Shown here: positions 8,217 to 62,665 of the stretch, piece by piece
How the letters are laid out: each line of letters begins with the position of its first letter
How positions within the stretch are numbered: the stretch's first letter is position 1
Origin: Candidatus Moraniibacteriota bacterium
GTDB taxonomy: Bacteria > Patescibacteriota > Minisyncoccia > Moranbacterales > UBA1568
Direction: 5' to 3'
NCBI GenBank assembly: GCA_963743885.1
Contig: CAVURJ010000001.1
Location: forward strand, 76,949-140,948
Length of the DNA: 64,000 nt
Translations under genes and position numbers: made by a program
The notes under the pieces: generated by a model
Seen by the model: the letters and a program-made list of their open reading frames with translations, nothing else
The model's database searches: none
Told to the model about the DNA's origin: nothing

Positions 8217-8356
8217 CTAAATCACAAATCCAAAATCTCAATTTCCAAATAAATTACAACTCTCAAATCCGAAACGCGTGCATTCCTATTTTGAGTTTTG
8301 AATTTATTATTTGTTTGGAACTTGTAATTTTGAGCTTTGAATTTCAAGAATTACCC

Positions 8357-8701
8357 TTAAATGGCCGTACGAGCGGCTGGGTAGACCTCGAGACGATCGA
8401 GCGGAATCTCTTCACCAGACTTCTCGCAGATGCCGTACACGCCCTTGTCCATCTTGGTAAGTGCATCGTTCACATCATGGAGCTGGCCTTCGAGATTGTC
8501 CTCGAGCGCCAGGTTATCGACATAGCCTTCCACTTCGGTCGCATTGTCGTCCTCATCATCGCCGATTTCCTCGATCTGCGTCTCATAGTTGCCGACAGCA
8601 TCAGTCGACTTCGCGAAACGGGACAGTTCGCTTTCGAGCCGCGCCTTCTCGGCGAGCAGCTTTTCCTTCAGTCTATCGAGCGTTGTCTGGTCAAGTGCCA
8701 T
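8357..8701 (-). CDS. DksA/TraR-family-like small regulator (weak)
   Basis: 114 aa with a coiled-coil N-terminus (LKEKLLAEKARLESELSRF), an acidic segment and a C-terminal GVYGICEKSGEEIPLDRLEVYP resembling the DksA/TraR C4 region with degenerate Cys. Confidence 0.4.
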   Translation of the reverse strand: MALDQTTLDRLKEKLLAEKARLESELSRFAKSTDAVGNYETQIEEIGDDEDDNATEVEGYVDNLALEDNLEGQLHDVNDALTKMDKGVYGICEKSGEEIPLDRLEVYPAARTAI

Positions 8702-8779: not shown

Positions 8780-9160
8780 CTACAAGAATATGCTTTCCAG
8801 ATGCCTGATATCGGCCTTTCCTAGGGCTGGATCATACAGGATCGACAGCGCGTCGAAGGCATACGGGGCATCCTCCACCTTCTTCTCCCGAAGATAGCAC
8901 GCCGCGATCCGCTCAAGCTTGCGAAGCTTATCCCGGCCGATATTTTCCTCCGGCAACGCACCAACGCCTACTGTCCGGGTCTTCACCTCCACAAAGATGA
9001 TCCGCCCGTCTTTCTTAGCTACGATATCGATCTCGCCAAGCCGTTTCCCCGTCGTATTGCAATAATTAGTCTCCAGGATCCGATACCCCTTATCCCGAAG
9101 ATAACGGCAGCCGAGCTTCTCACCGATGCTTCCGACCTTGTTTTTTAAGAAAAACCGCAT
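8780..9160 (-). CDS. YraN/UPF0102-family endonuclease-like protein
   Basis: 126 aa; GYRILETNY...GEIDIVAKKDGRIIFVEVKTR matches the YraN (Holliday-junction-resolvase-like) core. Confidence 0.55.
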   Translation of the reverse strand: MRFFLKNKVGSIGEKLGCRYLRDKGYRILETNYCNTTGKRLGEIDIVAKKDGRIIFVEVKTRTVGVGALPEENIGRDKLRKLERIAACYLREKKVEDAPYAFDALSILYDPALGKADIRHLESIFL

Positions 9161-27429: not shown

Positions 27430-27613
27430 TCTTAGTTTCCGGCTAGATGTCTTTTTGAGAAAAAGAAACTGTCCGAGACACCCTTGTTTCCCGAAGGATT
27501 CCCTTGGGTCGTAAAGAATGAGGCCTGCCTGCCGGTAGGCAGGGGAATGCTTCGTTAGAAACAAGGGTGATGAGTTTTTCTTTTTTTCAAAAAGAGTTTC
27601 TGGCCGGAAACCG
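27430..27613 (+). repeat. Palindromic intergenic repeat, copy B (with a central insertion carrying the CCTGCCTGCCGGTAGGCAGG hairpin)
   Basis: agtttccggctagatgtctttttgagaaaaagaaactgtccgagacacccttgtttcccgaagg ... cgttagaaacaagggtgatgagtttttctttttttcaaaaagagtttctggccggaaacc. Confidence 0.8.
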
Positions 27614-41395: not shown

Positions 41396-41750
41396 CAAGT
41401 GAATGAAGTGAACGCCGTGGCCAGAGTAAGCCAACTGCTTGGCTTACGAGGGAGGCGAGAAAGCCGGAGCGATATCCACGCGAGTGGACCGCGAGGCGGG
41501 GTCGACAGCTCGCATAAGCGAGACTGGTGACCGAGTCCTCTCCTAGGCACAAAATGAACAAAGTGAATGGATTGTGCCCCGGAAGCAGGCCAACTCTTGC
41601 CTACCGGCAGGCAGGGCTTGGCCTGCGGAGGACGAGAAAGCCGCAGTGCTGCGTGAGTTTCCGCCGAAGGCGGAAGGCGAGCGCCACGAGGCGGGGTCGC
41701 GAGAAATTTCCGTCAGGAAATTTACTTGTGACCGAGTCTCTCGTTTCTAC
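41396..41750 (+). repeat. Two tandem roughly 165-190-bp related units, each ending in a copy of the tRNA-Leu(GAG) 3' end (…cgagtcctctcctaggcaca; …gtgaccgagtctctcg)
   Basis: Unit A 41396..41560 and unit B 41561..41750 share blocks (aagccaactgcttggctt / caggccaa...ttggcctg hairpins; gaggcgagaaagccggagcg / gaggacgagaaagccgcagtg; cgaggcggggtcg). Unit B contains ttgcctaccggcaggcagg. Confidence 0.7.
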
Positions 41751-41824: not shown

Positions 41825-41842
41825 CAGTACCTATAAAATATG

Positions 41843-42160
41843 CCGAGGTAGCTCAGTGGTAGAGCAGAGGACTGATTTTCGGTCACTCCTGTAGTAATAC
41901 AGGATGTATGCATCGGGTGAACTCGAGGAAACCTACGTTTCTAGCAATAGGAATATGGCAATCTCGATCCAAGCCTCAGTGGGATAAAGTTCTGAGGAAG
42001 GTGTAGAGACTAGCAGGTGAGCCCCAACAATAATCCTGCAACAGCGCCCGACTTCGCACTCCTTTCGAGGAACGAAGATGAAATAGTCCGATCCTTGGGG
42101 AAACCCAAGACAAATAAGAGGAAAATCCTTGTGTCGGCAGTTCAATCCTGCCCCTCGGCA
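41843..42160 (+). tRNA. tRNA-Phe (anticodon GAA) interrupted by a 246-nt group I intron in the anticodon loop
   Basis: 5' exon 41843..41874 (GCCGAGG acceptor, D-arm, GAGGA-CT) and 3' exon 42121..42160 (GAAAATCCTT...GGCAGTTCAATCCTGCC CCTCGGC A). The acceptor stem is perfectly complementary across 300 nt. The spliced loop reads CTGAAAA. Confidence 0.7.
41875..42120 (+). mobile_element. Group I intron in tRNA-Phe
   Basis: Internal guide GGTC pairs with exon GACU with a U.G at the splice site. P7-forming R/S-like elements are gtagagactagcagg and agatgaaatagtccgatcc. The intron ends in G (omega-G) at 42120. Confidence 0.6.
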
Positions 42161-42228
42161 CAGAAGACAGTTAGCAGTTAACAAATAGCAGACAACGGGA
42201 CTGTAGCTCAGTGGTAGAGCGCGCGGCT

Positions 42229-42848
42229 CAAGAAGTTCATTTCAAATTGTGTTGCGGGTTGTGTAATTCAGCATGACAATTGTTGCAAACAAGCAGACAC
42301 TTGTTCACTTCTTCGTCAATATGGGATTGCTTCCGATTTGAAAGGGATCTCATATCGAGTTGAAAGCTTTTTTCTTTCGGATCAAGGTGATGGAAAGTCA
42401 GTGCGGCAAGGTTTTTGTTATAGCCGCAAACTGAACATTTCCCACCGAATCGTTTCAAAAGCGACATCTTTCTCTCCAAGCCCCTGGCTTGTTGGGATTG
42501 ATACGATTGATGAAGCTGATTCTTACAAAAGGGCGAGCAAAAGACTGTTTGTCTGCCAGACAATTCCTTGCTACACACGACACAAGTTATGAGTTTTTTC
42601 ATAACTTTATGATAACACAAAATGAATGGATCTAGCAGGGCTGCTTAGGAAGTAATTCCTAAGTGATACTCTGTCAAACTCGGGGAAATCTAAACGGTGA
42701 GCAGTTTCATCCGCATGACAATCCCGAGCCAAGCCTCATCCATCAGGTGAGGAAGGTGTAGAGACTAGACGGCAGACACCCGTAATTCGGGTGAAGGGAT
42801 AGTCCAGCTCACAAATTTGAAAGAAGTTGCGAAAGCAATAGTGAGAAG
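42229..42848 (+). mobile_element. Group I intron in tRNA(CAT) carrying an antisense HNH endonuclease ORF
   Basis: The 3' part (ccaagcctcatccatcaggtgaggaaggtgtagagactagacgg ... gggatagtccagctcac) is homologous to the tRNA-Phe intron core. The intron ends with G at 42848. The ORF 42237..42620 lies on the opposite strand. Confidence 0.6.
42237..42620 (-). CDS. HNH homing endonuclease (intron-encoded, antisense to host tRNA)
   Basis: 127 aa; CSVCGYNKNLAALTFHHLDPKEKSF ... LLVCNNCHAELHN is a classic HNH/zinc-finger motif. Low GC. Confidence 0.7.
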   Translation of the reverse strand: MCYHKVMKKLITCVVCSKELSGRQTVFCSPFCKNQLHQSYQSQQARGLERKMSLLKRFGGKCSVCGYNKNLAALTFHHLDPKEKSFQLDMRSLSNRKQSHIDEEVNKCLLVCNNCHAELHNPQHNLK

Positions 42849-47827: not shown

Positions 47828-48055
47828 ATATGTGGATAACAGTGTACAAACGTCTTTTTTGGCTTATATTGTGCCCTCGAGAGGAATCGGACCTCTATTT
47901 ACTCGTTAGGAGTGAGTCGTTCTATCCATTGAACTACAAGGGCGAAGACGCATACTACCACGTCTCATTCATCTTATCAATGCTTACGTGTTAAGTAAAA
48001 CAAAAAATCCCCAAATAAGGAGATTTTCGCGACAACGCCTGATTTTCCGAAAACA

Positions 48056-48072
48056 GTGTGGACCATGCCGGA
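48056..48072 (-). repeat. 17-nt direct repeat of the tRNA-Ala 3' end (gtgtggaccatgccgga), 220 bp 3' of the tRNA
   Basis: Identical to 48292..48308. The intervening segment carries cctgcctaccggcaggcagg. Confidence 0.75.
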
Positions 48073-48294
48073 ACACTCACTACGCCCCTTCGATAAACTC
48101 GGGGTGCGTTCTATAGGGCTTCCCTGCCCGAAGTGCTACATCGTTGCAGGCGGGCGCCCTCTAGTCCTCTCCGCCCAGCTGGCGGATCGGTCACCCCGAA
48201 CGGGAAACTCCCGTTTCCTCGACTCGATTCGAGTCGAAGCGGGCCGACCCCTGCCTACCGGCAGGCAGGCCTTCCCTATTCGACCCCGTCAGTG

Positions 48295-48367
<73 letters not shown>

Positions 48368-48375
48368 GTTATTGG

Positions 48376-49050
48376 CTACATGAGTAGCATTTTAGCAATG
48401 TGTTTTAATTCAAGATCAATAGAAGAAGAAAAGTAGTCAACGCGACATACGCCTCTGTAATCGGCTTTTCTTGACTTTTTACCAATGGTTCTCTTATCAA
48501 TCCTTGCTTTGTAAAACTGACTGCGAGAGACGGCTGTAATTTTAGACCAAATATTCTCTAAAGATTCTACGTCTTGATCTGCTCTGCATTGAACCGTAAT
48601 TCTGAACTTTGACTCATCAATCTCATAACATTCTCGCATAAGGCGCATAAAAAGTCCAATGATGGATGGGTCTGAGTTACCAAACATAAGGGCTCCCCTT
48701 GGTGATTTGGAGCCTTCTGCTAGATAGAGAACTGCCAATGTAATTTTTCGGGAATCTTTGCTGGTTTTAAAAAAATTAATAAGCGAATTATTTTGTGAAT
48801 TAAGTTTTTCTACTAGAACTAAACGGTCCTCTTTTTTCTTTTCTAGAGCCATAATTCTAGATTTTTCAAGATGAAGTTTATTCATATTCTTCATCTTCAA
48901 ATAGTATTCTTCTGGCAGTTTAACCTTACTGCACCAGCTAGAAAGCGTGCTTTTTGAAATAATAACACCTAAAATATCACTAATCTCACTATATGTTCTC
49001 CCTTGCGAACGGAGATGCTGAGCTCTAATTTTGATGGAATATAATTTCAT
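48376..49050 (-). CDS. HTH-domain protein with a degenerate single LAGLIDADG-like motif (possible inactivated homing endonuclease or DNA-binding protein), in an AT-rich island
   Basis: 224 aa. N-terminal helix-turn-helix is RTYSEISDILGVIISKSTLSSW. Central KITLAVLYLAEGSKSPRGALMFGNSDPSIIGLF follows the LAG-x-x-D-G-D-G-S-x pattern with Glu in place of Asp. About 33% GC, directly upstream of the parS array. Confidence 0.3.
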   Translation of the reverse strand: MKLYSIKIRAQHLRSQGRTYSEISDILGVIISKSTLSSWCSKVKLPEEYYLKMKNMNKLHLEKSRIMALEKKKEDRLVLVEKLNSQNNSLINFFKTSKDSRKITLAVLYLAEGSKSPRGALMFGNSDPSIIGLFMRLMRECYEIDESKFRITVQCRADQDVESLENIWSKITAVSRSQFYKARIDKRTIGKKSRKADYRGVCRVDYFSSSIDLELKHIAKMLLM

Positions 49051-49139
49051 AGATTTATTGTACCATAGAACTACTCCATGTGTAAATAAGTTAGGTTCAT
49101 TTTTTAAGATGAGACTTTCTTGCTCAACTATTTACTAAT

Positions 49140-50350
49140 TGTTCCACGTGGAACAATTCCGATACTAGTCACCCTATCAGAACAATCCAGAATATCTTTT
49201 AAACGATACTTTCCTACTTGAAAGTAAAAATCATGCCATTAGGCTAATCTGTAAGCCAAAAATACGCACGGTCCAGCCCGCGTCATCACAATGTTCCACG
49301 TGGAACATATTACACTCCATAATAATTAATCATCTGTTCCACGTGGAACATTCAAAAAAACCAGTAGCGGATAACAATGAGACAACGAGATTGTTCCACG
49401 TGGAACAATTTAAAAAAATACCTCCGTATCTACGTGACAGCAAAAAATTAGCGTATCGATGTTCCACGTGAAACATACTCATATATACAGACTTGTTCCA
49501 CGTGGAACAAAATACCCACTATGAACAATCATGGGTCTTGAGGATCCTTAAAAGATAAGCGATTGCTATGGAGCCACAGAAAGCATATTCTAAAACATCC
49601 TATGTTCCACGTGGAACATACATCAAAAAAACAGCCAGCCTGAAATATCCCTTATCCTCGTTTTCAAATATACTTTCCTTTCAAAAAGTCTAAAAATACT
49701 GTTTTTTGGCTTATGATAGGTACGTAAGACACAAAAATACTAGTTGTTCCACGTGGAACATGCCAAAATTCCATACCAATGTTCCACGTGGAACATTTTT
49801 AAAAAAACGATATCCTTGAGGCGTCTCACAATGTTCCACGTGGAACATATGTGTTTTTTGAAAAACAGTCTCAAAACGATCCATCCCATACAAAGGTTCG
49901 CCAGAACAGCTGCGCCTCTACTTATCGCGATACATTGTTCCACGTGGAACAATGTATCATTACAATACATGGATAAGGGAAAGATGTTCCACGTGGAACA
50001 TATCTACCGAATACCCACTCCATGAACATTAAAAATTATCCTTTTGCCAGAACTTTCTTCTTTGAAAGTTAGAAATTTGTATATTTTGGCTTATATTAAA
50101 TATTTATGTTAATAATGTTCCACGTGGAACATGCTAACACAATCAAATCTTATCGTGCTTGAAACATATTTTAAAAAATGTTCCACGTGGAACATTTAAA
50201 CAAGTCACCAAAAGATCGGGTATTTCGCCAGGGGATTATGTTCCACGTGGAACATAGCCATCATTATTAAAAACTCAAATATACAAATATCCTATATATC
50301 ATACTAATAATTGACAGAATGGACTGCTGTAAAATGTTCCACGTGGAACA
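49140..50350. repeat. parS: Array of 16 parS-type 16-bp palindromes TGTTCCACGTGGAACA (one copy TGTTCCACGTGAAACA) with irregular 34-152 bp spacing in AT-rich noncoding DNA
   Basis: Core starts: 49140, 49292, 49335, 49392, 49460 (gtgAaaca variant), 49494, 49603, 49745, 49780, 49832, 49935 (a 26-bp perfect palindrome tacattgttccacgtggaacaatgta), 49985, 50116, 50179, 50239, 50335. Most are flanked to give the 18-bp ATGTTCCACGTGGAACAT or TTGTTCCACGTGGAACAA. The sequence is one or two symmetric changes from the canonical Firmicute/ParB parS TGTTNCACGTGAAACA. Confidence 0.85.
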
Positions 50351-50384
50351 TCTTATATCACTTTTTCTCTACATTATTGACATA

Positions 50385-50413
50385 TATACTATATTGTAGT
50401 ATAATAATGCTCT
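50385..50413 (+). promoter_or_regulatory. Perfect consensus sigma70 promoter (TTGACA - 17 bp - TATAAT)
   Basis: ttgaca at 50385..50390, 17-bp spacer, tataat at 50408..50413. Confidence 0.6.
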
Positions 50414-50419
50414 GTCTAC

Positions 50420-50815
50420 TATATACATGCTACCAAGATGATTTTCATTATTAACAAACGCTGGCCATCTGCGAGTTCTACGCGAGCTTAACAAAAGACA
50501 CTGAGCCCCAACACAAGCCTTGGATCTAATCCCTCTCCGCCTCTGGCAGAGAGTATTGACCAGATTTTACCTACGCTCCTCCGCCAGCTGGCGGACGGAA
50601 ACGAGAGTAAAATCTTGTTTCGCTCGCTTTGCTCGATAATTAAAAGACGGTGCTGGGCAGGTGCTTATCGAAAGGGGCTCGTGTCTTTCTACTACATCCG
50701 ATCAGCAGCGAGCTCCCTACGTCTCGACTTCGCAGCCCTCGTTATTGTGGCACGCCTAGCCAATGTATTCGATATCATCCTCTTGGGCCTAATACACAAG
50801 GCTCGGTTTTTTTAA
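50420..50815 (+). ncRNA. Candidate roughly 400-nt structured noncoding transcript (identity unknown) between the consensus promoter and a T7 run
   Basis: Higher GC than the AT-rich surroundings and multiple internal helices (cagattttac...gtaaaatcttg; ccgccagctggcgg). It ends ggctcggttttttt at 50808..50815. Only weak ORFs (66 and 72 aa) lie within it. The downstream gene has its own TTGATA-17-TATACT promoter at 50877..50905. Confidence 0.35.
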
Positions 50816-50933
50816 AACAACTTCATACCCCGTCCCGCCTACTAATCATCACTCGCAGTCTGACATAATCGTAAAATTGATACACACAGAAAAATATGTT
50901 ATACTTTCATTGTAAAAACAAGTAGCGACTCTT

Positions 50934-59734: not shown

Positions 59735-59795
59735 AATTATCCACTTATACACCGGTTATTCACTATTCCCCAGTATCTAGAGGCTCGTTCAGTTA
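59735..59795 (+). promoter_or_regulatory. DnaA boxes in the dnaA upstream region
   Basis: ttatccact (59741..59749) and ttatccacc (59783..59791), 8/9 and 7/9 matches to TTATCCACA, plus the weaker ttattcact, within 70 bp of the dnaA start. Confidence 0.5.
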
Positions 59796-59811: not shown

Positions 59812-61260
59812 ATGGCTCGTACTGCTGATATTTTCCCTCACCTTATGCTGACAAGCGATGAACTTTGGAAGGCTGTCTTGGGCCAAATAGAACTTTCTTT
59901 ATCGAAAGCCAATTTTATAACCTGGTTTAAGAACACTCGGATCCTTAGTAGCCAAAACGGCCTCGTCACTATTGGCGTGCCGAATGGCTTCGCAAAAGAA
60001 TGGCTTGAAAACAAGTACAACCTCTATATATTGAAGGCGCTCAAAAGCCTCGACCCAAGCGTCACTGAGATGCGTTGTGTTATATCGCAGGAACGGCCGA
60101 ATATCCCAACAATTGATTCGGTCAAGACCGCGTCCGTGTCGTCACAACCATCAGAGGCCCAAGGATTCGTCAGGAAAAAGATCATCGAAAAGCCCGCTTT
60201 CGGCGCGCAAACCACATCCGAACCAGTATTCCATGAGACAAACCTCAACAGCCGATACACATTTGAAAACTTCATCGTTGCTGAGAACAACGAACTCGCA
60301 CGAGCGGCCTGCTACGCCGTCTCACAAAACCTCGGCATGGCCTATAACCCACTCTTCATCTATGGTGGTGTAGGGCTTGGCAAAACCCACCTCCTCCAAT
60401 CCATCGGCAATGAGGTGATGAGAAACGCGCCTGAAAAGCGCATCAAATACATCAACTCTGAACGATTCACCACTGAACTCGTCGATTCCATCAAGAACCA
60501 GAAGATTGATAAATTCAAAGAATACTACCAACAGATGGACCTCCTCATTATTGATGATGTCCAATTTCTCGCCGGCAGAGAGAAAACTCAGAATGAGTTC
60601 TTCCATATCTTCAATGCGCTCTACCAACTCAATAAACAGATCGTGATATCGAGCGACCGGCCCCCAAAAGCCATTCCAACACTCGAGGAGCGTCTTCGGT
60701 CGCGTTTTGAGGGAGGTATGATCACTGATATTAGTCGGCCAAATATTGAAACGCGTATCGCTATACTTGAGGCTAAGATAAGCGAAAAATCAGCTCATCT
60801 TGATGATGCATCCATTCGTTACATCGCTGAGCACATCTCACAAAACATCCGTGAACTTGAAGGAGCCCTCAACCGAGTCATCGCCTTCTGTGAATTCCAC
60901 AAAGTCTCTCCCTCCCTCGAAAATACCCAGAAAGTCCTCTCTCAACTCATTGAAACGAATAAAAAAACCATCAAGCTGGATGATATCTTCTCAGCCATTA
61001 TTGAGTTTTATAACGTATCAAAAGAAGACCTCTTAAAGAAAGGCCGGAAAAAAGAAGTCTCCCACCCTCGACAGGTGATGATGTATCTCCTCCGAAAGGA
61101 ACTCGACATGCCATTTTCTACGATTGGCGATACCCTTGGGGGACGTGATCATACCACTGCCCTTCATGCATATGAGAAAGTGAATAAACAACAAGTGGAT
61201 AATGAGCGACTCCAAGAAGAACTCCTTACCTTAAAAGAGAAGCTCTACTACCAATCCTGA
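59812..61260 (+). CDS. dnaA: Chromosomal replication initiator DnaA
   Basis: 482 aa; Walker A GGVGLGKTHLLQ, AAA+ sensor motifs, and C-terminal DNA-binding helix DHTTALHAYEKV. Confidence 0.95.
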   Translation: MARTADIFPHLMLTSDELWKAVLGQIELSLSKANFITWFKNTRILSSQNGLVTIGVPNGFAKEWLENKYNLYILKALKSLDPSVTEMRCVISQERPNIPTIDSVKTASVSSQPSEAQGFVRKKIIEKPAFGAQTTSEPVFHETNLNSRYTFENFIVAENNELARAACYAVSQNLGMAYNPLFIYGGVGLGKTHLLQSIGNEVMRNAPEKRIKYINSERFTTELVDSIKNQKIDKFKEYYQQMDLLIIDDVQFLAGREKTQNEFFHIFNALYQLNKQIVISSDRPPKAIPTLEERLRSRFEGGMITDISRPNIETRIAILEAKISEKSAHLDDASIRYIAEHISQNIRELEGALNRVIAFCEFHKVSPSLENTQKVLSQLIETNKKTIKLDDIFSAIIEFYNVSKEDLLKKGRKKEVSHPRQVMMYLLRKELDMPFSTIGDTLGGRDHTTALHAYEKVNKQQVDNERLQEELLTLKEKLYYQS

Positions 61261-61519
61261 TACAAACTCTGTTAATAACCCTGTATAACCAACGATATCC
61301 GCTGGATAAGAGTGTTGATAAACTAAACACTCTTGTGAGTAACTCTCCTCTCCTTGATTATTTTATGAGTTATACGAATATCCCTCTGAGATATCCTGAT
61401 TATAAAAATACATCTACTCTAAAAAATACCCTTTATTTAAAACAAAAATAAGAATTATCCCCATATCCACATCACTAAGTAATAATAATTCTTATTTAAA
61501 TATATAATACTTATATCTT
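61261..61519. promoter_or_regulatory. oriC: Candidate oriC: AT-rich dnaA-dnaN spacer with DnaA boxes and a DNA-unwinding-element-like AT tract
   Basis: ttatccagc (reverse complement of gctggataa, 61301 region), atatccacat and ttatcccca (about 61455..61475), then about 60 bp of more than 85% AT (aataataattcttatttaaatatataatacttatatctt) adjacent to dnaN. Confidence 0.45.
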
Positions 61520-62665
61520 ATGAAACTCATCTGTACACAAGAGAACCTCAACCGAGCAATATCATACCTTGAACGAGTTACAGGAAAACAGACAAACCTT
61601 CCTATTCTTGGAAATTTCCTTCTTGAGACAGAAAAGGGGAGATTGAAGATATCAGCGACAAATCTCGAGATTGGGGTTGTGGTGTATATTGGGGCAAAGA
61701 TCGAGCGTGAAGGAAGAATAGCAGTTCCTTCGCGGGTATTGGCAAATTTTATCCATAATCTTCCAAGTGGGGATGTAGTGGATATTGAGGTTTCTGGGCA
61801 GGTGATGAAAATAGTGAGTGCAGCGCATCAAGTGAATATTAAAGGTGTGGATGGAAAGGATTTTCCGATTATCCCACAATATAAAGAGGAGTATCCATTT
61901 GCGTTACCAGCCCAAGAATTAAAAGAAGCGCTTTCAAGGCTTTTATTTTGTGTTAGCTTAAATGAATCTCGGCTTGAGCTTACTGGGGTGAATATTTTTT
62001 TCTTTGAAGATGCTCTCCACCTCGCAGCGACAGATAGTTTTAGGCTTGCAGAGGAGATTATTCCACTTAAAGAGTCGAGCGTTGGATATCAGGATTTTAT
62101 TAAGGGGAATCCATCGCTTATTATTCCAAGTAATACCCTCCAAGAGGTGGTAAGGGTTATTACTCAGGAAAATAGCGAGGTGAAGATGGCACTTAAGGAG
62201 AATCAGGTATTTTTTGAAATAGATGGGGTCCAGATTATCTCGCGGAGTATTAATGGGAAATACCCTGATTATAAGCAGATTATCCCACAATCCTTTATAT
62301 TAAGATGTACTTTAGGGAGGGATGATCTTCAACGGGCGATCCGGATTGCAAGCGCATTCTCATCGTATGATACAAATGAGGTGACGCTTGTATTTGATCC
62401 GAAGCGTAGTGAGTGTTCCGTGGCGTCTATTTCGCGCGAAGTCGGGGAGAATAAGACGGTGCTTAAGTGTGAGTTTATATCTGGGAATGACCCATTAACG
62501 ATCGTCTTTAATCCGCGCTATGTCGCAGATGGCTTGAATGCCTGCTCGAGTGGTGTGGTGATGTTTTTAGCGAATACAGGGACGACGCCAGCAGCGCTTC
62601 GGATGATGGATAATGAGAGGGAAAAAGAAGGGTATCTTTATATTATGATGCCGATCAGGAAATGA
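61520..62665 (+). CDS. dnaN: DNA polymerase III beta sliding clamp
   Basis: 381 aa, three-domain clamp; typical position after dnaA. Confidence 0.9.
   Translation: MKLICTQENLNRAISYLERVTGKQTNLPILGNFLLETEKGRLKISATNLEIGVVVYIGAKIEREGRIAVPSRVLANFIHNLPSGDVVDIEVSGQVMKIVSAAHQVNIKGVDGKDFPIIPQYKEEYPFALPAQELKEALSRLLFCVSLNESRLELTGVNIFFFEDALHLAATDSFRLAEEIIPLKESSVGYQDFIKGNPSLIIPSNTLQEVVRVITQENSEVKMALKENQVFFEIDGVQIISRSINGKYPDYKQIIPQSFILRCTLGRDDLQRAIRIASAFSSYDTNEVTLVFDPKRSECSVASISREVGENKTVLKCEFISGNDPLTIVFNPRYVADGLNACSSGVVMFLANTGTTPAALRMMDNEREKEGYLYIMMPIRK

Follow-up and report, generated by a model that had tools for sequence, protein, structure and literature searches.

A dense parS array beside a conserved gene–tRNA-Ala(GGC) module near the probable replication origin of a Moraniibacteriota bacterium

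The 64,000-nt stretch of Candidatus Moraniibacteriota bacterium analysed here (contig CAVURJ010000001.1 of assembly GCA_963743885.1, positions 76,949 to 140,948 of the forward strand; hereafter the window) contains an AT-rich segment at 48376-50420 that combines a dense array of parS palindromes with a single gene for a 224-aa protein, followed by a tRNA-Ala(GGC) gene. The explanation that we favour, with a probability of about 0.5, is that two separate neighbours have been held side by side through an old gene order: a parS centromere, and a module of promoter, open reading frame (ORF) and tRNA whose product would be an autoregulating DNA-binding protein. The constant partner of the gene is tRNA-Ala(GGC), not parS. 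The following features carry this interpretation:

49140-50350, no strand: parS array of 16 sites in non-coding DNA, presumed ParB loading zone (chromosomal centromere), from motif count, flanks and published consensus
49057-49086, minus strand: predicted promoter of the 224-aa gene and candidate operator, with -35 TTTACA at 49086-49081 and extended -10 TGGTACAAT at 49065-49057
48376-49050, minus strand: ORF of the 224-aa protein of an uncharacterised Patescibacteria family, with helix-turn-helix (HTH), long helix and C-terminal alpha/beta domain
48294-48367, minus strand: tRNA-Ala(GGC), 8 nt past the stop codon of the gene and on the same strand
59812-62665, plus strand: dnaA and dnaN, probable oriC region, from Pfam, GC skew and TTATCCAC boxes

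Fifteen of the 16 palindromes at 49140-50350 are perfect copies of TGTTCCACGTGGAACA and one is TGTTCCACGTGAAACA, which carries a G-to-A change; most extend to the 18-bp form ATGTTCCACGTGGAACAT. No further copy is present elsewhere in the 64 kb, and the chance expectation is 0.02. The sites fit the published 16-bp consensus of chromosomal ParB sites, TGTTNCACGTGAAACA; P. aeruginosa and M. xanthus have the GG form as their consensus (PMC7022226 Table 1). An unbiased reciprocal search of metagenome contigs for pairs of perfect copies spaced 18-48 bp retrieved 120 loci, mostly from high-GC non-Patescibacteria, with parA/soj beside the pair in 53 and parB/spo0J in 33. The count against chance, the match to the consensus and these parA/parB neighbours bear out what a sequence-only reading of the segment had proposed: judged by sequence, the palindromes are real parS sites. 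The array is presumed to be the ParB loading zone of the chromosome, i.e. its centromere, at which ParB dimers would load and spread over 16 sites in 1.2 kb, ~9.5 kb from dnaA/oriC. ParB proteins (PF02195 plus PF17762) are present in the related Kaiser-, Magasanik-, Nomura- and Paceibacteria, and our literature search returned nothing relevant on parS or ParB in Patescibacteria.

The spacing between the sites is irregular (34-152 bp) and shows no helical phasing, and one type of spacer recurs:

49160-49295, 49625-49745 and 50005-50120, no strand: three copies of a ~100-nt spacer segment, 464 and 380 bp apart, with 66% mean column identity in the alignment

Because of these three copies, partial growth of the array by segmental duplication is indicated, presumably in units of ~400 bp.

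The end of the array lies 9.5 kb from dnaA (59812-61260), which is followed by dnaN (61520-62665). The GC skew is negative up to ~60 kb and positive thereafter, and TTATCCAC (DnaA) boxes at 59737, 59794 and 61455 flank dnaA. We considered whether the array itself is the replication origin and rejected this, since both the sign change of the skew and the ordinary TTATCCAC boxes are located at dnaA/dnaN; the array is origin-proximal but not the origin. Dense origin-proximal parS clusters are already known, and that of the window is a compact example. With the chromosomal ParABS clusters of M. xanthus (22 parS), P. aeruginosa and B. subtilis (PMC7022226 Table 1) it shares the multiplicity of sites and the position near the origin, and with the first two species also the 16-bp GG-type palindrome. 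It differs from these clusters in packing its 16 sites into 1.2 kb of non-coding DNA without adjacent parAB, and in having related loci with sites inside a Wzy_C gene. The plasmid centromere sopC of F is likewise an array of iterated ParB-type sites. Its many inverted-repeat copies in a compact non-coding block and its growth by duplication resemble the array of the window, whereas irregular spacing, mostly unique spacers, a chromosomal consensus site and a chromosomal location by oriC set the latter apart. Chromosome segregation has hardly been investigated in this group of bacteria, for which the array would be a centromere of unusual compactness.

The gene tells a different story. The tRNA-Ala(GGC), which had been overlooked in the sequence-only reading, is next to the homolog in 77 of the 80 loci with a family gene that were taken from GTDB species representatives with up to 10 kb of sequence per side; in 70 of them it follows the gene directly on the same strand, and in seven it is located just upstream. 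Among 76 scored tRNA/ORF junctions the ORF ends inside the tRNA in 43, and the stop codon is identical with U8-A9-G10 (TAG) of the tRNA in 33. The overlap amounts to 15 nt in eight loci and to 11 and 22 nt in two more; at the remaining 33 junctions ORF and tRNA are separated by -1 to +21 nt, two outliers aside. Because a promoter scan of the window predicted no separate promoter for the tRNA, its co-transcription with the gene is presumed. A conserved -10 box for the tRNA at a fixed position inside the 3′ end of the ORF was not found.

Upstream of the gene the conservation is equally specific. The promoter of the window leaves 6 nt between the -10 and the ATG at 49050 and lacks a Shine-Dalgarno sequence, which corresponds to a leaderless geometry. 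Enrichment of k-mers in the 160 nt before the start codons revealed ATTGTACC in 41 of 79 loci, where 0.2 would be expected; 53 of 81 loci carry the exact core GGTA[CT]AAT, and most others have close variants of it. The aligned consensus TTGcACATtGA-N6-TCTrTGGTAC(A/G)AT corresponds to a -35 and an extended -10 separated by a 17-nt spacer; the ATG lies 6 nt past the -10 in 30 loci and 7 nt past it in 10, again without Shine-Dalgarno. Counted over 1.19 Mb of loci, 38 of the 47 occurrences of TGGTACAAT and 27 of the 31 occurrences of TTG[CTA]ACAT[TG]GA are found at this gene, and the window has only this one copy. Loci that have tRNA-Ala(GGC) but not the gene lack the motif upstream of the tRNA. 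The two promoter boxes are mutually related (TTGyACA-like). Since their conservation reaches past the sigma-70 contacts, we infer that they may serve as the operator of the encoded HTH protein. Autoregulated HTH repressors offer the closest parallel, with a family-specific conserved sequence that covers the -35 and -10 of the gene for the HTH protein; here, the binding is predicted, the transcript would be leaderless and carry a tRNA, and the second domain of the protein is without known relative.

The ORF contains LAVLYLAEGSKS and belongs to a family found, among the matches obtained here, in Patescibacteria only. It comprises more than 322 matches with a length of ~225 aa and an identity of roughly 50%, none of which has a Pfam domain, and 280 clusters at 50% identity in a profile search (E<=1e-30). 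One member, P0030, is labelled 'NMD protein affecting ribosome stability and mRNA decay' by JGI, a label that no profile search supports. The AlphaFold model (pLDDT, the predicted local distance difference test, of 91) consists of an N-terminal three-helix bundle (~1-40; helices 2-15, 20-27 and 33-39 at pLDDT >=89), a 50-residue helix (47-96) and the C-terminal alpha/beta domain (98-224). This bundle, together with a weak match to the Pfam family HTH_23 (E 0.004; 17.3 bits, under the Pfam cut-off of 24.6), upholds the N-terminal HTH that had been read from the sequence. Its residues K33, T35, L36 and W39 are invariant in the 32 sequences from which invariant positions were called. Sub-threshold matches to HTH_SB occur in 14 of these 32 members, the relative P0260 exceeds the cut-off for HTH_23 with 28.8 bits, and the best fold match among viral structures is a transposase HTH (59 columns, root-mean-square deviation 2.7). 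The predicted N-terminus is thus weakly but repeatedly matched to transposase-type HTH families (HTH_23, HTH_SB, HTH_28). An unrelated family, for example a transposase-associated HTH, had been named beforehand as an outcome that would speak against a LAGLIDADG origin, and to this extent it was found: the HTH matches transposase-type families best.

Taken together, promoter, ORF and tRNA-Ala(GGC) would represent a 0.8-kb module common across Patescibacteria, with the tRNA abutting or overlapping the end of the ORF, and would probably be transcribed as one leaderless RNA whose start lies at or beside the AUG. The protein would be a dimeric sequence-specific DNA binder directed to the two conserved boxes that cover the -35 and -10 of its gene, and would thereby control how much of its mRNA and of the co-transcribed tRNA is made. 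In loci whose ORF ends in the tRNA, the cut of RNase P would remove the stop codon, so that tRNA making and protein completion may compete. The strict version of this idea, namely an mRNA-tRNA fusion module in which RNase P processing and protein completion exclude each other on one transcript while the protein feeds back on the shared promoter, is tentative and in our view rather doubtful. In animal mitochondria, transcripts are punctuated by tRNAs. There, as here, the 3′ end of an mRNA can be set by excision of an abutting tRNA, and nucleotides can be shared between coding sequence and tRNA. The module differs in its location on a bacterial chromosome, in the phylum-wide use of one specific tRNA and in the stop codon inside tRNA positions 8-10, which excision would remove rather than complete. 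If the coupling is functional, it represents a new way to link tRNA supply with gene expression; if not, it is a clear case of overlapping signals that freeze gene order over very long times. As far as the literature searched shows, the protein family, its fusion with tRNA-Ala(GGC) and the conserved promoter are undescribed, and a family without known relatives that is tied phylum-wide to one tRNA gene is a larger surprise than the array.

The near-universal physical fusion to one tRNA species also suggests a protein that acts on RNA, as a maturation or stability factor of tRNA-Ala(GGC) or of its own mRNA-tRNA transcript, through a basic sheet surface of the C-terminal domain. The invariant K148, R150, Q154 and R156 alternate along one strand, R187 and R203 are nearby, and the target conserved throughout the phylum could be the tRNA itself. 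We nevertheless regard such a role as unlikely: the HTH is of the DNA-binding type, no RNA-binding or tRNA-processing family was matched, and tRNA-Ala(GGC) occurs without the gene in related genomes.

A LAGLIDADG-like motif with Glu in place of the catalytic Asp had led to the proposal that the protein descends from a homing endonuclease. This descent found no support. The protein of the window does not match the profiles PF00961, PF03161, PF14528 or PF14527 even at E<=10; only one of the 32 members shows a sub-threshold match to LAGLIDADG_2 (E 0.012). The family profile retrieved no LAGLIDADG chain among the PDB sequences, and hhalign against I-CreI gave a probability of 0.2%. Foldseek searches (two against PDB, one against viral structures) were also non-significant: neither the whole model nor the isolated C-terminal domain (pLDDT 92.7) had a match in PDB at E<=0.001, the top matches of the domain are OmpA-like domains (TM-score ~0.4), and the best LAGLIDADG-type structure, the intein endonuclease 7qss, ranks 35th (E 0.42, TM-score 0.40). 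The order of elements in the C-terminal domain is alpha-beta-alpha-beta-alpha-beta-alpha versus alpha-beta-beta-alpha-beta-beta-alpha in LAGLIDADG proteins. E112 and G113, which end helix 98-113, are invariant, but an acidic residue followed by Gly is unspecific on its own. Glu instead of Asp need not mean inactivity, because active LAGLIDADG enzymes use Glu. The gene is free-standing and sits neither in an intron nor in an intein. WhiA and other domesticated LAGLIDADG proteins likewise combine an HTH with a second alpha/beta domain and have a helix that ends in an acidic residue and Gly; the family differs from WhiA in lacking a match to the LAGLIDADG_WhiA profile, in placing the HTH first, in having one C-terminal domain instead of two and in its order of strands and helices. 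LAGLIDADG membership is therefore unsupported, and the motif appears to be a chance resemblance or at most the trace of a very remote relationship. A short LAGLIDADG-like string should generally not be taken as evidence of homing-endonuclease ancestry.

Beyond the HTH, searches of Pfam, NCBIfam, PDB sequences, PHROGs and PADLOC gave no significant assignment, the C-terminal domain had no significant profile or fold match, and longer family members inspected for extra domains revealed nothing informative. The polar residues E112, N125, E146, K148, R150, Q154, R156, D158, Q159, D185, R187 and D205 of this domain are invariant.

One earlier suggestion was that the AT-rich segment is a horizontally acquired partition or segregation module. 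It consists, as first described, of one gene plus the palindromes, with 48376-49050 (minus strand) as the sole long ORF next to the 16 sites at 49140-50350. Its GC content is 35.4%, identical in the gene part (35.4%) and the array part (35.4%), compared with 50.7% and 51.1% in the 5-kb flanks; the reported deficit is real, but amounts to 15-16 points instead of roughly 20. The segment represents the lowest-GC 2-kb stretch of the window (3.6 standard deviations under the mean), and the GC content at third codon positions of the gene is 0.32 versus 0.41-0.71 in neighbouring genes. These values are what a recently acquired partition module, i.e. foreign DNA with its own centromere and binding protein, would predict. 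However, the family gene lies ~8 GC points under its flanks on average in nearly all 80 relatives, whatever the GC content of the host, and its low GC in the window is therefore a family trait and not a sign of recent transfer. Moreover, parA and parB are absent from the island and it lacks similarity to plasmids or phages. The closest relative, locus L001, shares the gene order of the window (tRNA-Val, ORF, TSP3-repeat protein, array, gene, tRNA-Ala, tRNA-Arg(CCT), small ORF, DHH protein) at a protein identity of only 55%. A recent acquisition of the island is accordingly very improbable.

The same conclusion follows from the evolution of the gene in other lineages. In the seven loci that share a Wzy_C neighbour, the identity of the family protein (46-71%) tracks that of Wzy_C (30-55%; Spearman 0.77, 21 pairs), and the family protein is the more conserved of the two. 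No copies were found in phage, plasmid or IMG/VR viral collections; a phage or defence origin was rejected on these empty searches and on PHROGs and PADLOC, which returned nothing useful. Because of the co-variation with Wzy_C, the synteny with L001 and the lack of phage, plasmid and viral copies, the comparison argues for a resident gene, apparently under strong purifying selection and neither recently transferred nor actively homing.

This evidence also bears on the idea of a selfish, homing-endonuclease-like element at the 5′ edge of tRNA-Ala(GGC), whose HTH would find the tRNA gene, whose C-terminal domain would cut empty alleles and whose entanglement with an essential tRNA would block its loss. 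A precedent exists in SegB of phage T4, a free-standing endonuclease gene inside a tRNA cluster. The AT content of the gene consistently exceeds that of each host genome, its position against a conserved tRNA is fixed, the gene is polymorphic in presence and absence at the same site in related genomes, and its modular build joins an HTH to a domain rich in polar residues; the weak hints of LAGLIDADG (E 0.012 in one of 32 members; 7qss at TM-score 0.40) point the same way. A selfish element, on the other hand, is not expected to co-vary with a neighbouring host gene and even to surpass it in conservation. All 80 copies are intact ORFs of ~225 aa, although the search that gave the 80 relatives favoured intact copies. 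In addition, no nuclease family was matched, phage, plasmid and viral-contig copies are lacking, and the target tRNA is intact in filled sites. We do not consider this origin likely.

The relationship between gene and array remains the most delicate point. The sequence-only reading had suggested a regulator that reads or protects the array. Such a protein might work with ParB as a centromere-associated factor, or might take the place of ParB. The co-occurrence of gene and parS is partly confirmed: in 15 of the 65 relatives with full 2.5 kb of upstream sequence, parS lies within this distance. The sites are in every case on the side of the promoter, and many are 34-160 bp away from the start codon. 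In the window the nearest site (49140-49155) begins 54 nt upstream of the -35. Per 10 kb, 3.66 parS sites are present upstream of the gene and 0.165 in the rest of the loci, and the linkage recurs in six or more groups scattered over the family tree. A TTNCAC core is common to the boxes ATTG[C/T]AC and GTACAAT (49057-49094) and to the parS half-site GTTCCAC, a weak likeness that may be chance. A direct role of the protein at the array is still quite improbable. The pairing is not obligate: parS is absent from 60 of the 80 relatives in up to 10 kb on each side, and the gene is absent from all 120 parS-pair loci. Two distinct dense arrays (L148 and L173/L197) lie in Wzy_C close to tRNA-Ala(GGC) without the gene, a remnant of it or the TGGTACAAT motif. 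The palindrome is the universal ParB site that accompanies parAB elsewhere, and ParB is present in related lineages. The parS variant shifts by lineage between GG, AA and CATATG cores while the recognition helix is unchanged, and this invariant helix has a better candidate target in the promoter of its own gene. Because dense arrays occur beside tRNA-Ala(GGC) without the gene, the parS region and the tRNA-Ala(GGC) locus are the stable neighbours, and the gene is present or absent by lineage.

Several observations weigh against our explanation of two independent neighbours. The ~22-fold enrichment of parS upstream of the gene, seen in at least six groups, is stronger than we would expect if gene order had merely drifted, and its position beside the promoter is only partly explained by shared ancestry of the gene order; a functional tie is possible, such as an influence of ParB on the promoter of the gene. 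Genes for ParB and ParA were not found from -60 to +11 kb around dnaA in a motif scan of the window plus 10 kb past dnaN, a search of ParB homologs gave no match assignable to the 652,564-bp contig, and the lack of a ParB gene in these 71 kb around the origin would also suit a protein that reads the array itself. The putative operator is deduced from sequence conservation past the sigma-70 contacts. An enzyme, too, could have as many invariant polar residues as the C-terminal domain, and in other lineages the 3′ end of the ORF may harbour an internal tRNA promoter.

The genomic setting of the array varies among the loci. It is non-coding in the window, L001, L061 and L074, and located between dnaA and the gene in the latter two. 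Five to eight parS are situated directly upstream of dnaA, the usual place of oriC, in L061 (1874-2467), L074 (9296-9829) and L167 (13583-13822); their form in L061 and L074 is TGTTTCACGTGAAACA, and in L167 the contig end falls within the array. In six further loci parS sites occur inside an intact, divergent Wzy_C (O-antigen-ligase-like) ORF of 500-600 aa:

L024, 7852-9375: Wzy_C ORF with parS
L030, 1228-2889: Wzy_C ORF with parS
L034, 8470-9942: Wzy_C ORF with parS
L035, 6991-8595: Wzy_C ORF with parS
L039, 8057-9883: Wzy_C ORF with parS
L051, 4580-6289: Wzy_C ORF with parS

A more distant homolog of this ORF occupies the same position in L068 and has one looser parS-like site. The Wzy_C loci, including L148, L173 and L197, hold 3-11 parS in all three reading frames, which encode the peptides VPRGT, FHVEH or CSTWN, apparently in loops; one site before a transmembrane helix is apparently at a homologous position in several lineages. 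Such arrays inside a membrane-protein gene are informative about how centromere sites spread. The non-coding array of the window as a decayed Wzy_C gene was rejected, as no residual similarity is left after masking the parS sites; an unmasked tblastn yielded matches only to the peptides encoded by parS. In L024 a CATATG-core palindrome (TGTTTCATATGAAACA-like) is present at 8239-8543, with at least two sites (~8239 and ~8539) in the Wzy_C ORF beside a canonical parS at 9046, and may represent a diverged parS. The Wzy_C protein of L039 contains two copies of an insert, TSPNPSPYKGEGGSE, beside the parS-encoded peptides, which suggests that other small repeats have also been inserted in frame.

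At the right edge of the segment an outward consensus promoter, unnoticed in the initial description, precedes a non-coding stretch:

50377-50405, plus strand: perfect TTGACA-17-TATAAT promoter (12/12 in the promoter scan), 27 bp past the last parS and directed away from the array
50377-50815, plus strand: candidate non-coding RNA or long leader, a GC-richer non-coding stretch of ~400 nt with a terminator (hairpin plus T-run) at 50783-50806

The folding z-score of 50377-50815 is -2.6, and a second promoter at 50877-50905 serves the next gene. Rfam gave no match at E<=1 and the other loci show no conservation of this sequence; the stretch is a candidate for a new non-coding RNA or a long leader.

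Elsewhere in the window, a group I intron match without detected host tRNA lies at 42622-42829 (plus strand), and tRNA-Phe(GAA) at 41842-42161 (plus strand) is split in its anticodon loop by a 247-nt group I intron (Rfam 41865-42110; ARAGORN with introns allowed).

The 3′ end of tRNA-Ala(GGC) carries a further structure:

48054-48072 and 48290-48308, minus strand: 19-nt perfect direct repeat, detected as a self-match, that flanks a 217-nt GC-rich, strongly structured insert and includes the last 15 nt of tRNA-Ala(GGC)

The insert sits between the tRNA and a terminator at 48028-48003, has a folding z-score of -3.35 and is absent from L001; pieces of it recur at 27521-27545 and 41582-41619, and Rfam returned only noise for the GC-rich stretch. 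The region 48054-48308 resembles a small insertion element with the 3′ end of the tRNA as its target. Repeats also occur downstream of the family gene in other loci, namely eight repeat copies directly after tRNA-Ala in L031 (3536-3720), six copies of ATGTCTAGACAT in L065 (11903-12265) and nine copies of GTGGACTTTGGA in L022 (11377-14366).

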